A DNA stretch of 60,811 nt, from NCBI GenBank assembly GCA_014238535.1, contig JABAAW010000004.1:1-60811 (forward strand). Reading direction: 5' to 3'. Each line of letters begins with the position of its first letter. Position 1 is the stretch's first letter. Positions 23,285 to 27,420 of the stretch are shown here, piece by piece. This DNA comes from Alphaproteobacteria bacterium. GTDB lineage: Bacteria; Pseudomonadota; Alphaproteobacteria; JABAAW01. The notes beneath the pieces are model-generated. The model saw nothing but the letters and a program-made list of their open reading frames with translations. It did not search any database and was not told the origin of the DNA. A program made the translations under genes and the position numbers.

Positions 23285-25279
23285 TTGGCGCGCGGGATCG
23301 CGAGCGCGCCTGCAAACCCATACAACGAAGGCATGTGGCAAAGATGGTTTGCCGAAGAAGGGTATAGCAAAGATGAAGCGCGGCGCATTTTTTCAGACAG
23401 CGTTGAACGAGTTCGCCAAGAAATTTCGGCACGAGCTTTTAGCGTAGCAAGACGATCTGAGTTGCTCGCTAAGCTTAGAGCGAAGATAGGTTCTGGTTTA
23501 GAAGGCTTGCTTATGCTACGAGGCGACCGCTATGGTGATGAGTCTCTATCGCAAGACGCTGAACATTTTCGCTTTTTCACTGGTTTTTCTGGTTCTTACG
23601 GCTGGGCGATTTTTGACTTTCGGGCGAAGAAGAAATCGTTACTTGCGACTGATCCACGCTACCGCTTGCAGATAGGCGTCGAATGCGACAGCGATCTATT
23701 CGAGTTTAGCGATTCTCGACAGACGGAGATAGCGGACAGGCTTGCTAGCATGTTTTCTGCTGGCAGTCGTATCGGCTATGACCCTTGGCAGTTTTCGCAA
23801 GGCTTGCTGGAGGGGGTACGAGCACGACTGCGCGAGTTAGCCCCGATGATTAGACTAGTTTCTATCGATGCGGATAAAATATCGTCTTTATGGCACGCGC
23901 GCCCGCCTGCTCCATTAAGCCTTTTATCCTTGCGTCGAGCTAGCGAGACTGGCGAGGAGGCGTTTGTGCGCTTGCGGCGTATGCAAGAGCAGATGCAAAC
24001 CAGCGCGGATAGTAATGTGGAATCCTTGCTACTAACGAATAGCGATGCTTGCGCTTGGGGCTTATCGCTACGCGCGAGCGATGTTCCGTATGTGCCTATC
24101 GCGTTAGGTTATGGGCTATTGACTTTTGCGCGTGATAGCAAAGATAAGACCCGAGCGTGCTTTTTCACGCGCCCTCGTCCTACTCTTCGGGGCGAGGATT
24201 TGTCGCATTGTGAGATTTGCACGATGGGCTCGCTAGGTGTTGAGTTAGATATGCTTGCGCGAGCGAAGCGAGTCCTCGTCCTCGACAAGAGCAAAACGCC
24301 TAGCGCGTTAGTGCGCGCTTGCCGCAGCAGGTCGTTGCCTTTGCGTTTTGCGGAAGAACCTAGCGCGGCATTGCGCCTCTGTAAGACTACGCGCGAGCGT
24401 GTTAATTTTCGCAAGGCGCATTTATTGGATGGAATTGCGCTCGTGCGTTTTTTTTCTTGGCTTGATCGAATAGGCAAAAGTAATGAGCGCGTTGATGAAG
24501 CGGAGGCGGCGAGCAAGTTATATGACTTCCGCCTGCGTAGTGGTAAATTATTGGACGAGAGTTTCAAGGCTATTTCGGCGAGCGGAGCGAACGGTGCGCA
24601 AATTCACTACCCGACACCTAGCGCAGGCTCGAGTTTGCTACGACGAGACAAACCTTACTTGATAGATTCGGGAGGTCAATATGCGTTTGGTACGACGGAC
24701 ATCACGCGCACTTTAGTTTTTGGTGGTGGTGCGGGAGAGGTTGCGTTTCGCGAAGCCTACACTGCTGTATTACGAGGTCACATTGCGCTTGCGACGGCGG
24801 TATTCCCGGAGGGCACTTATGCGCATTCGCTCGATGCCTTTGCGCGCCGCGCCCTTTGGCAACGAGGGTTAGACTACCCGCATGCTAGTGGTCATGGGGT
24901 TGGCTTTTGCTTGAGCGTGCATGAGGGGAAGGTACGTTTTGCGCAAAGTGGCAGTGGCGAACGGCTACGATTAGGGATGATTCTATCGAATGAGCCTGGC
25001 TATTATAGCCCGCGGAATTTCGGCATACGCATCGAGAATTTAATGGAGGTTGTGTATGCGGGCGGAATGAATTCGGAAAAGAAGCGCAATTTATGCTTTC
25101 GGACTCTCTCCCTTGCGCCGATTTCCCTTACGCCGATAATTATTGAGCGACTAGAGACTTGGGAACGGCGATGGCTAGATGCGTATCACCAACGCTTACG
25201 CGAGACGATAGCACCGCACCTAGAAGATTCGCACGAACGAGCATTCCTCGAGCATGCGACAAAGGCGCTCGTTTCGTAG
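23285..25279 (+). CDS. Aminopeptidase P family (Xaa-Pro aminopeptidase); true start may be downstream
   Basis: FTGFSGSYG, TDPRY, LIDSGGQY..GTTDITRT, GHGVG..LSVHEG, SNEPGYY, IRIEN. Confidence 0.9.
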   Translation: MARGIASAPANPYNEGMWQRWFAEEGYSKDEARRIFSDSVERVRQEISARAFSVARRSELLAKLRAKIGSGLEGLLMLRGDRYGDESLSQDAEHFRFFTGFSGSYGWAIFDFRAKKKSLLATDPRYRLQIGVECDSDLFEFSDSRQTEIADRLASMFSAGSRIGYDPWQFSQGLLEGVRARLRELAPMIRLVSIDADKISSLWHARPPAPLSLLSLRRASETGEEAFVRLRRMQEQMQTSADSNVESLLLTNSDACAWGLSLRASDVPYVPIALGYGLLTFARDSKDKTRACFFTRPRPTLRGEDLSHCEICTMGSLGVELDMLARAKRVLVLDKSKTPSALVRACRSRSLPLRFAEEPSAALRLCKTTRERVNFRKAHLLDGIALVRFFSWLDRIGKSNERVDEAEAASKLYDFRLRSGKLLDESFKAISASGANGAQIHYPTPSAGSSLLRRDKPYLIDSGGQYAFGTTDITRTLVFGGGAGEVAFREAYTAVLRGHIALATAVFPEGTYAHSLDAFARRALWQRGLDYPHASGHGVGFCLSVHEGKVRFAQSGSGERLRLGMILSNEPGYYSPRNFGIRIENLMEVVYAGGMNSEKKRNLCFRTLSLAPISLTPIIIERLETWERRWLDAYHQRLRETIAPHLEDSHERAFLEHATKALVS

Positions 25280-25397: not shown

Positions 25398-25423
25398 CGC
25401 CGAGAGTTTTCGCCGAGAGTTTT
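25398..25423. repeat. Exact 13-bp tandem duplication (cgccgagagtttt x2), intergenic
   Basis: Read directly. Confidence 0.85.
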
Positions 25424-25425
25424 AT

Positions 25426-25689
25426 TTATAAATCTCGCTTTTTGTTATAAATCGCATCGAATTCTTCGTCGCTTTTGCGGGAGCAAATTATTATTTCGAT
25501 CAATGCAGCAATAAAAGTTATCTGTGTCCAGCAGAGCAGAGTGTATATCACGGCGAGCCAGACTGGTCCAACATAGTACCTATGCGCGCCTATCCATCCG
25601 AAAGTAGCTGCATAGAGCAGGAAGAATGCGCGTTTTTTCTTCCCTGAAGTAGCTGCATGGAGCAGGAAGAATACGATTTTTTTCTTCAT
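25426..25689 (-). CDS. TM2/NINE-domain small membrane protein (paralog 1)
   Basis: FGWIGAHRYYVG motif, two TM segments, AGGAGG SD. Confidence 0.8.
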   Translation of the reverse strand: MKKKIVFFLLHAATSGKKKRAFFLLYAATFGWIGAHRYYVGPVWLAVIYTLLCWTQITFIAALIEIIICSRKSDEEFDAIYNKKRDL

Positions 25690-25774
25690 TTATCCAACCT
25701 CCTATTTTTGCTTTTACTTTTGGTTTTACGACTTACGCCGATTATACCGAGCCAACGGTGATTTTAGATTTTAC

Positions 25775-26062
25775 TTAGCTGTTGTATTTTGCGTTGAACT
25801 TCTCTTCGCCCGCTATGGAATAGAAGATTATTTCGATATATGCGATTACGCCAGGGATGAAAACAGGGATAATCCAAGAGGCATCGAATGACTCTTTTAG
25901 CCACGAAACAGTCTGCGAGTAATAGATAATGAGACCTAGCGAAATTAGAAGCAAAGCTGGGTATAGCAATGCTAGGCGATGCTGCCCCAAATAGTGCCGA
26001 TGCCCTCCCACGAAGCCAAGTGCTTGGGCATATATCAGAAAAATGATCCGTTTTTTTTTCAT
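25775..26062 (-). CDS. TM2/NINE-domain small membrane protein (paralog 2); ATG at 26062 preferred over the TTG at 26077
   Basis: LGFVGGHRHYLG motif; GGAGG SD 7 nt before the ATG at 26062; MKKKR start like its neighbours. Confidence 0.75.
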   Translation of the reverse strand: MKKKRIIFLIYAQALGFVGGHRHYLGQHRLALLYPALLLISLGLIIYYSQTVSWLKESFDASWIIPVFIPGVIAYIEIIFYSIAGEEKFNAKYNS

Positions 26063-26116
26063 CGAATAGACCTCCAACGGTATTTAGAATAGCAGTTTAG
26101 CCGCATACATTTTCGC

Positions 26117-26338
26117 TTAGCCTATTTTTTCTGCCTTATTGTACATCGCATCGAATTTTTTATCGTTAATTTGCGAATATACGATGAACTCTATGAGAGC
26201 TACGAGCAAAGGTATACCAGTCCAGAAAAACAAAGAATAGAAGACAGCGCAGGCTGTTTGCCCCAAATAGTATCGGTGCGCGCCCATCCATCCGAATACG
26301 ATAGAGTAGAACATAAAGAGTATGCGTTGTTTTTTCAT
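26117..26338 (-). CDS. TM2/NINE-domain small membrane protein (paralog 3)
   Basis: FGWMGAHRYYLG...YSLFFWTGIP..VALIEFI; AGGAG SD. Confidence 0.85.
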   Translation of the reverse strand: MKKQRILFMFYSIVFGWMGAHRYYLGQTACAVFYSLFFWTGIPLLVALIEFIVYSQINDKKFDAMYNKAEKIG

Positions 26339-26439
26339 TTAACCAAACTCCTATCGTTGATATGAAGGTAGTAACATCGGGCTAGTATAGCAAGCGCGGT
26401 TATTTATGGGCAGTGAATTTTAACATTTTAGCGCTCTGA

Positions 26440-27372
26440 CTATTTTTCTTCTTCTGCTGCTATTTCTTGCGCCATATTTTGCGCGCGCTGATATGCGAGT
26501 TGTGCGGTAATTTGCATTAATGGCACGAGTCCTGTTTTTTTGTCGTTTAGGATGCTTAAACCTGCTTCGGTTGTCCCGCCTGGCAGGGCGATGCTAGCGA
26601 CGAGTTCTTGTGGCGAGATATTTTTCTCGGTATGCTGTTTTTCAGCGAATAGCCCGACTCCCTTTAGAGTTTGAAATGCGAGCAACCGCGCTTGGTCTGG
26701 CTTGTAACCGAGTTCGCAAGCGGCGGTCTCGAAGGCGTGTATCATCTGGAACAGGTAGCCGGGCGCGCTACCCCAAAGCCCAGTGCCTTTGTCTAACAAT
26801 TCATCGGAACAGAAGACGCTGCGCCCCATGGGAGCGAAAAGAGCGCGCACATAAGAGGACTCTTGTTCGCGCTTGCTGTCGCTTGCGATCAGGATGATAC
26901 CTTCGCCGATAGCGACGGGTATGCTTGGCATCACGCGAAATAGGGGTGTGGATAGGTTTTTGTTTGCCTTTAGCGCGTAGCGCATGCGTGTCAGGGGCAA
27001 GCCAGCGGCGAGCGAGATGACGCTTGCACTCGGTGCGAGAAGGTGTCGAGCATCGTTGAGTGTCGGTAGCACCTGTTTAGGACGCACGGCGAGCAGCAAG
27101 GCGTCGGGGGCTGGTAATTTTTGTTGAGAGAGCTCGTCGGCAAATTTTTGCAAGCTCGCGTATGCTTGAAAGCGAGGTGGCGATAGAGCCTTTGAGCCGA
27201 TATCGGCATTAGGTGAGCGATCGATGACGCTAAAAAAATTCGGTAGATTACGGCTGTATTCTTTTTCGTTTATGCAAGCGTCGCCCCAGCGCGTAAGCAA
27301 AGCGCCACCCATGTGCCCGCAACCGATGACTAATACATGAGTGTATTTTTCTGCTGTTATTTTTTGCGAAAT
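26440..27372 (-). CDS. proC: Pyrroline-5-carboxylate reductase; frame extends upstream of the called ATG (27312), start uncertain
   Basis: VLVIGCGHMG Rossmann motif lies just upstream of and including the called Met; LAVRP, SLAAG, RVMPSIP, GSAPGY, PGGTTEAGL. Confidence 0.9.
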   Translation of the reverse strand: MSQKITAEKYTHVLVIGCGHMGGALLTRWGDACINEKEYSRNLPNFFSVIDRSPNADIGSKALSPPRFQAYASLQKFADELSQQKLPAPDALLLAVRPKQVLPTLNDARHLLAPSASVISLAAGLPLTRMRYALKANKNLSTPLFRVMPSIPVAIGEGIILIASDSKREQESSYVRALFAPMGRSVFCSDELLDKGTGLWGSAPGYLFQMIHAFETAACELGYKPDQARLLAFQTLKGVGLFAEKQHTEKNISPQELVASIALPGGTTEAGLSILNDKKTGLVPLMQITAQLAYQRAQNMAQEIAAEEEK

Positions 27373-27420
27373 TTCACCACCTAGTTATGCCTTACGAAAG
27401 AGGCATTTTAAACACAGCCT

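Follow-up and report, generated by a model that had tools for sequence, protein, structure and literature searches.

TM2 is among the most widespread membrane domains without a known molecular function, and human TM2D3 is linked to Alzheimer's disease risk. A search of the literature on bacterial TM2, COG2314 and YozV found no experimental function. In animals, there are three TM2D genes per genome, which are reported to have the same knock-out phenotype (PMC8714088). Bacterial TM2 proteins (Pfam PF05154; COG2314 'YozV'; 'NINE protein') have a two-helix hairpin with a GxxGxH(R/K)(F/Y)Y turn and invariant residues, and a 68-residue module with an S(D/E)E.F..KYN tail is common to thousands of proteins. 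These features are also found in three neighbouring genes, here called TM2 paralogs A, B and C, on the minus strand of a contig from an uncultured member of the Alphaproteobacteria (GTDB lineage JABAAW01; GenBank assembly GCA_014238535.1, contig JABAAW010000004.1, positions 1 to 60,811 of the forward strand). The whole stretch of 60,811 nucleotides (nt) is referred to as the window. The three genes lie between pepP, encoding aminopeptidase P, and proC, encoding pyrroline-5-carboxylate (P5C) reductase. Their products differ from many bacterial relatives in being minimal, with 73-95 amino acids (aa) and no zinc ribbon, SHOCT or other soluble domain. The window also differs in having three diverged copies side by side, one of which, B, is predicted to contain an extra membrane-length helix and has a sub-threshold Pfam score.

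The triplet arose by local duplication of a resident gene and not from phage or foreign DNA. We incline, with slightly better than even confidence, to the explanation that A, B and C are old tandem duplicates of the TM2 gene that this genus carries between proC and pepP, that they have been kept by purifying selection, and that they co-assemble in a hetero-oligomeric membrane complex. The triplet is an ordinary lineage-specific expansion of the known TM2 family and not a new system.

Three diverged TM2 genes in tandem

The initial annotation had listed three minus-strand open reading frames (ORFs) of 87, 95 and 73 aa with strong Shine-Dalgarno sites, MKK(K/Q) starts, a core motif and a common tail, and each of these was found where it had been placed. 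Paralog A (26117-26338, minus strand; 73 aa) is the minimal canonical form, consisting of a K-rich N-terminus, two membrane helices with the GAHRYYLG loop between them, and a tail helix (..NDKKFDAMYN..). Paralog C (25426-25689, minus strand; 87 aa) has the canonical module after a 15-aa extension. Paralog B (25775-26062, minus strand; 95 aa from the ATG) has diverged the most, with HRHY for HRYY and F for W; an alternative TTG start of B at 26077 is less likely than the ATG because it overlaps the Shine-Dalgarno site. The proteins start with MKKQ (A) or MKKK (B and C), their core motifs are GWMGAHRYYLG (A), GFVGGHRHYLG (B) and GWIGAHRYYVG (C), and their C-terminal tails are LIEFIVYSQINDKKFDAMYN (A), YIEIIFYSIAGEEKFNAKYN (B) and LIEIIICSRKSDEEFDAIYN (C). 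The consensus across the three is G(W/F)xG(A/G)HR(Y/H)Y(L/V)G for the core and (L/Y)IE(I/F)I...(E/K)F(D/N)AxYN for the tail. G16, G19, H21, R22 and Y24, which are invariant in 37 aligned homologs, are present in A, B and C.

Searches with hidden Markov models confirmed that these are TM2 proteins, as annotated. A (46.7 bits) and C (36.6 bits, residues 17-67) passed the gathering threshold of Pfam TM2 PF05154 (27.9 bits), whereas B (26.2 bits) stayed just below this cut-off because its match ends at profile position 45, where a 27-aa insert intervenes. Against the TM2 profile of the genus, B scored 106.8 bits. NCBIfam gave no match for the TM2 copies.

The insert of B consists of 27 codons (25859-25939, minus strand; residues 42-68, LGLIIYYSQTVSWLKESFDASWIIPVF) as judged from alignments, hydropathy and an AlphaFold2 model. 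The extra segment annotated in this paralog is thus present, but it is longer than the ~20 aa claimed. An origin of the insert by internal duplication of the second helix and tail was rejected by self-alignment of the protein (p = 0.25) and of the DNA (p = 0.99). The extra length of C is explained by a 15-codon tandem duplication that was absent from the earlier reading. The first 45 nt of the gene are duplicated in frame (25600-25689, minus strand; MKKKIVFFLLHAATS then GKKKRAFFLLYAATF), and the two units are identical at 37 of 45 nt with a spacing of 45 nt (repeat family D1). In the second unit the former ATG is now GGG, which means that translation has to start from the first unit, with the 15-aa extension as part of the protein. 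Just past the stop codon of C is a perfect 13-nt tandem repeat (two copies of CGCCGAGAGTTTT, 25398-25423, plus strand). This repeat, the 45-nt duplication and the gene-sized duplications suggest that the spacer by C is prone to slippage or tandem duplication.

The AlphaFold2 model of A, built from a 37-sequence alignment (pLDDT 83.9), contains helices at residues 2-15, 20-23, 28-36, (38-40), 42-56 and 59-72. These form a helix 2-23 broken at GWMG, a four-residue turn, a long kinked helix 28-56 and a tail helix 59-72. Hydropathy of A matches this model of two helices and a tail helix, and hydropathy of C is that of A once past the 15-aa extension. The model of B (pLDDT 84.2) contains helices at residues 3-24, 28-51, 53-58, 64-83 and 86-93, three of which (3-24, 28-51 and 64-83) are of membrane length. 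In this model, the 27-aa insert divides what is one kinked second helix elsewhere in the family into two helices of membrane length with a polar loop, and B is therefore predicted, by modelling, as a TM2 variant with a third membrane-length helix. No sequence match was found in the PDB, nor any fold match by Foldseek against the PDB; BFVD returned TM2-like viral proteins only, none of them at E <= 0.001.

Zinc ribbons are located N-terminal to the module in the relatives P0005, P0007 and P0010 and C-terminal to it in P0012, L035 and L037. Since relatives have zinc ribbons at either end, we infer that each protein is an inner-membrane helical hairpin, of which the K-rich N-terminus and the tail helix are probably cytoplasmic and the conserved GxxGxHRYY turn lies at the periplasmic face.

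The strength of the Shine-Dalgarno sites was taken as the length of the match to AAGGAGGT. On the minus strand, A is preceded by AGGAG (26348-26352, 5 nt), B by GGAGGT (26070-26075, 6 nt) and C by AGGAGGT (25697-25703, 7 nt). Matches of 5 nt or more were found in just 5 of the 36 long ORFs of the window, even with the best candidate start. The intergenic spacers among the co-oriented genes are 54 and 85 nt long. Promoter and terminator scanning gave no signal beyond shuffled expectation. It is possible that proC and A are co-transcribed because no terminator-like site was found between them.

A, B and C are the sole TM2 genes of the 1.39-Mb, 82%-complete assembly. The same 1.2 kb was found in two other independent metagenome assemblies, one of them a 790-kb scaffold, with 100% and 99.9% identity, and the DNA identity among A, B and C is 53-59%. 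These values rule out an assembly artefact or collapsed strain variants. Assemblies of the source samples are labelled SAMN14422900 and SAMN14422896 (ENA ERZ23487945 and ERZ23489137); a search for the habitat by accession and sample gave no result.

Origin and age of the triplet

Among the 11 species genomes of the order, this TM2 gene is confined to the genus of the window. Three species of the genus (G003, G004 and G006) have one copy each, of 69-70 aa, in the same fdsA-pepP-TM2-proC-ybjN-dnaJ order. In another species (G001, bin96p, JABACB010000004.1) a 25-codon TM2 stump, VKKEKKQRIFFLFYALVFGWMGGYR followed by a stop codon (L036, 3989-4066), overlaps or abuts the 3' end of pepP and represents a natural loss of the gene. 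The single copies in the same slot of G003, G004 and G006 and the stump in G001 show that the TM2 gene dates back to the ancestor of the genus, is usually present once and can be dispensed with. No TM2 gene was found in two incomplete genomes. Three copies occur only in the window's species, so the triplet is not a widespread housekeeping cassette, a possibility that had been raised with the initial annotation.

The protein identity to the single-copy orthologs is 57-59% for A, 51-58% for C and 48-59% across all paralogs, and the identity among the sister paralogs (44-49%) is below these values. In a maximum-likelihood (ML) tree of the six genus sequences and 68 outgroup modules from the profile search (alignment of 69 columns), the six genus sequences formed one clade with support of 99/96, indicating that A, B and C descend from the resident gene. 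The 16-nt leader of A, ATAGGAGTTTGGTTAA, is homologous to the leaders of C and of the G006 ortholog. Short leader stretches could be aligned between A and C (p = 0.007), A and the G006 ortholog (p = 0.02), and B and C (p = 0.018). The ribosome-binding region was therefore duplicated along with the gene. The gene tree, the single copies in the same slot in relatives and the homology of the leaders bear out the local duplication that had been proposed, and the divergent copies were indeed retained as three intact genes.

The GC content dips at the locus (41% versus 50-55%). The GC content at third codon positions (GC3) is 0.48-0.50 in A, B and C and about equal, 0.51-0.55, in the flanks. The dip is accounted for by amino-acid composition and AT-rich spacers. 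A foreign or phage origin was rejected by GC3 values close to those of the flanks, by the single genus clade and by a search of viral contigs, which gave only one weak match.

Between paralog pairs, the proportion of synonymous differences (pS) was 0.80-0.87, which is saturated, and that of nonsynonymous differences (pN) was 0.31-0.35. Saturation makes omega incomputable for these pairs and leaves only a bound, dN of 0.39-0.48 against saturated dS. ProC, PepP and YbjN are 57-65% identical between the window's species and the others, which is similar to the identity of A and C to their orthologs (51-59%). The pairwise distances are consistent with a star-like radiation of A, B and C from a point near the node of species separation, with somewhat lengthened tips, most so for B. 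From these sequence comparisons we conclude that the age of the duplications is close to that of the species lineage.

By the time synonymous sites were saturated, the reading frame of a neutral copy would have been destroyed, yet the frames, the invariant residues, the tail motif and the strong ribosome-binding sites are intact. This indicates that purifying selection has acted on all three copies over roughly the whole time since the species separated, and it speaks against neutral evolution, which had been considered with the initial annotation. The diversifying selection suggested there was not borne out: synonymous sites are saturated and pN is just 0.31-0.35, so that pS and pN of the paralog pairs give no sign of it, within the limit that saturation precludes a formal omega.

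The slot is bounded by proC (26440-27312, minus strand; Pfam P5CR_dimer), which is upstream of A, co-directional and 101 nt away, and by pepP (23285-25279, plus strand; peptidase family M24; Pfam Peptidase_M24, Creatinase_N and M24_C), which is convergent with the TM2 genes and forms the other edge. Beyond A, the minus-strand order is proC, a YbjN-family gene and a DnaJ-domain gene, and fdsA is on the pepP side. Inspection of the window ORFs and a Pfam scan detected no mobile-element, phage, toxin or endolysin gene at the locus; the Pfam scan of the flanks thus agreed with the annotated setting between aminopeptidase P and proC free of mobile-element genes. The listed ATG of proC (27312) falls inside the Rossmann GxGxxG motif (HVLVIGCGHMGGAL; region 27300-27390, minus strand), and the frame continues upstream for 24 further open codons without ATG, GTG or TTG. 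An ATT at 27372-27370, directly after AGGTGGTGA, is a candidate start, and proC probably starts at this non-canonical codon. An extra gene of 98-113 aa is located between proC and TM2 in three species of the genus (L014, 4948-5268; L016, 5443-5784; L036, 3663-3959) and is absent from the window and from G006. It encodes an N-terminal membrane helix and a coiled coil, a layout like that of i-spanin or XhlA, and gave weak, non-specific coiled-coil matches only (Pfam, PHROGs).

TM2 modules, fusions and arrays in other genomes

A profile of the six genus sequences was searched against 1.84 billion representative proteins (E <= 1e-3) and matched 4115 proteins. When the best 150 of these matches and the G006 ortholog were inspected, a tail-like motif followed the core in 116 of the 151 proteins. 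The 68-residue module of TM2 and S(D/E)E.F..KYN tail, which the 51-position model of Pfam covers in part, therefore represents a large subfamily. A word-index homolog search returned only the cluster of the paralogs themselves and the G006 ortholog. In a control search for TM2, Bacillus subtilis and Lactococcus lactis gave hits, and E. coli was not listed among the matching genomes. Two or three core motifs were present in one chain in 7 of the 151 proteins, with three in P0006 and P0015 and two in P0005 and P0007. In another protein, P0009, a long hydrophobic stretch is inserted into the second helix of the second TM2 module, reminiscent of B.

In an even set of 401 Alphaproteobacteria, TM2 genes were found in 64 genomes and adjacent copies in 7 of these 64. 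The tandem arrays included eight hits in G139 (nine ORFs by our reading), three in G056 and pairs in G229, G257, G055 and G295. TM2 genes have thus expanded in tandem repeatedly, and units with several modules occur.

The largest array (G139:C14; L061, 696-5548) consists of nine consecutive TM2-type genes of 126-169 aa by serS and tatC in a 2.0-Mb genome. Most of its genes encode a soluble N-terminal domain of ~70 aa, a GxHEFYAG core and an ..NGNIL.. tail, and two near-identical neighbouring pairs point to probable recent duplications. The array of G056 (G056:C1; L062, 762-4063), a 1.1-Mb alphaproteobacterium of another family, contains three tandem TM2 genes, one of them with an N-terminal zinc ribbon, and is convergent with and adjoins pepP, as in the window. 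A functional link between TM2 and pepP was rejected, since pepP lies elsewhere in 57 of the 58 TM2-bearing genomes outside the genus in which it was found; its adjacency in G056 is probably a coincidence. Metagenome-assembled genomes of Porphyromonadaceae (L045, 3221-4240; L049, 3223-4240) have tandem pairs of lipoprotein-like or signal-peptide TM2 proteins of ~143-186 aa that end in ..NPKLIMWK(D/G)QL, which is another independent tandem expansion.

Possible roles of the triplet and known TM2 systems

In the preferred explanation, the resident TM2 gene was duplicated in tandem together with its leader and all three copies were retained. The copies have diverged in structure, A remaining minimal, B acquiring a third, modelled membrane-length helix and C an N-terminal extension. 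The hairpins would work as oligomers, and A, B and C would most probably co-assemble into one hetero-oligomeric complex, a scaffold or regulator rather than an enzyme. A single transcript with a strong ribosome-binding site at each gene could supply the three proteins in similar amounts, and the complex would be the unfused counterpart of the natural two- or three-module TM2 chains. We infer that a hetero-oligomeric inner-membrane assembly is favoured, as it would predict genes close together in one orientation, a strong ribosome-binding site at each of them, naturally fused modules and paralogs of different shape, and as tandem arrays recur. The triplet, the multi-module fusions and the arrays together are circumstantial evidence that TM2 hairpins act as oligomers.

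Several points weigh against this explanation. At least one species of the genus, the one with the stump, can do without the gene, and single copies suffice in three others, which indicates that a three-part complex is not required for the ancestral function. In the ML tree, A, B and C were not recovered as a group, yet their monophyly was not rejected (p-AU 0.335). If all three helices of B span the membrane, its tail would end up across the membrane from those of A and C, which would be awkward for a simple symmetric hetero-oligomer.

The same sufficiency of one copy in three sister species and its loss in a fourth are expected if the paralogs are independent, working as homo-oligomers or alone and kept for dosage or, by sub-functionalisation, for sub-divided or condition-specific roles. 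A single copy is the rule in TM2-bearing genomes, and the structural differences among A, B and C fit separate roles equally well. We consider this main rival possible but not likely, since pure dosage does not explain a protein divergence of 51-56% with all motifs retained, natural fusions of 2-3 modules show that several hairpins can work in one unit, and the genes are co-oriented with spacers of 54 and 85 nt and a strong ribosome-binding site each. Another rival concerns the time of the duplications. Within the genus clade, B was paired with G006 (95/81) and C, weakly, with G003/G004 (69/77); IPGVIA is common to B and G006, and GPxW to C and G003/G004; and each paralog is nearer to the orthologs than to its sisters. 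This pattern would result if the genus ancestor had 2-3 copies, all of which were kept in the window's species and different ones in the others. Such differential loss after an older duplication is doubtful, since it requires two duplications and at least four losses instead of two duplications alone, and no other species has two copies. Moreover, some residues conflict with the pairing, as C has the G006-type tail SDEEFDA.YN and B the G003/4-type GE..FN..YN, the long branch of B (1.02) is joined to a very short one (0.07), the monophyly of the three copies was not rejected, and the pairwise distances form a star from the species node. Duplications within the species lineage are most parsimonious.

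An array driven by conflict, in which the copies serve phage exclusion, toxin immunity or host interaction under positive selection, had been proposed in the initial annotation. TM2 is found in phages, as the copies matched PHROGs families 10680 (E = 1e-15) and 10292, both without assigned function, as well as 24 phage records, and TM2 arrays occur in small, possibly host-associated genomes. However, PADLOC gave no match for A, B or C, the neighbours of which are pepP, proC, ybjN, the DnaJ-domain gene and fdsA, and no mobile, phage or toxin gene adjoins them. The housekeeping synteny is fixed in the genus, GC3 equals that of the flanks, dS is saturated and dN low, and the independent assemblies are 99.9-100% identical. 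The nearest relatives are cellular and not viral, with one weak viral-contig match and phage matches of at most 41% identity. Phage exclusion or toxin immunity is thus not supported, and a conflict-driven array is very unlikely. Nor is there a phage holin or lysis cassette, as no endolysin or phage gene was found at the locus. It is still less credible that one or more copies are non-functional relics of decaying duplicates. B is below the Pfam cut-off, C has an odd N-terminal duplication and the gene is dispensable in one relative, but the frames are open, G16, G19, H21, R22, Y24 and the F..xYN tail are kept despite saturated synonymous sites, and Shine-Dalgarno sites of 5-7 nt are kept in all three.

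A stronger form of the preferred hetero-oligomer would be an obligate complex of interdependent subunits, namely a minimal hairpin, a three-helix variant with its tail at the opposite face and an N-terminally extended variant, as a bacterial counterpart of TM2D1/2/3. We regard this form as unlikely; if it were true, arrays in reduced alphaproteobacterial genomes would mark an unrecognised membrane function for small-genome, possibly host-associated bacteria. Tandem expansion of small membrane proteins is common, and the triplet is a useful data point for work on TM2 function and not a discovery in itself. With three genes of <100 codons each, it offers compact test material.

The multi-module TM2 chains (P0005, P0006, P0007 and P0015) resemble the triplet in having 2-3 diverged TM2 modules, with or without tails, per unit, and some of them agree with it in having three. 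Fusion of the modules in one chain sets them apart from the separate genes in the window; the chains are not close relatives, and it is an assumption that their modules pack against each other. The other alphaproteobacterial arrays are likewise independent local expansions, often in genomes of 1.1-2.1 Mb, and that of G056 is convergent to pepP. They differ in belonging to other TM2 subfamilies and in having N-terminal soluble domains, an ..NGNIL.. instead of an ..EEFDAxYN tail, and other neighbourhoods. Phage TM2 proteins (PHROG 10680 and 10292; Bacillus phage PM1, Enterococcus phages) contain the same module including the tail, but their identity is at most 41%, and the window locus is chromosomal, syntenic and without a prophage.

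The metazoan proteins TM2D1, TM2D2 and TM2D3 (biscotti, amaretto and almondex), which act in Notch/gamma-secretase signalling, have the same Pfam domain and are likewise three paralogs; to our knowledge, the Notch pathway is absent in bacteria. Unlike the window proteins, they have a signal peptide, a large extracellular N-terminal domain and a DRF loop described as intracellular, and their genes are unlinked (PMC8714088). The features of the almondex group are not found in A, B and C, in which helix 1 follows MKK(K/Q) directly and HR(Y/H)Y forms the loop. The likeness to the three TM2D proteins is thus best regarded as an analogy and not as orthology.

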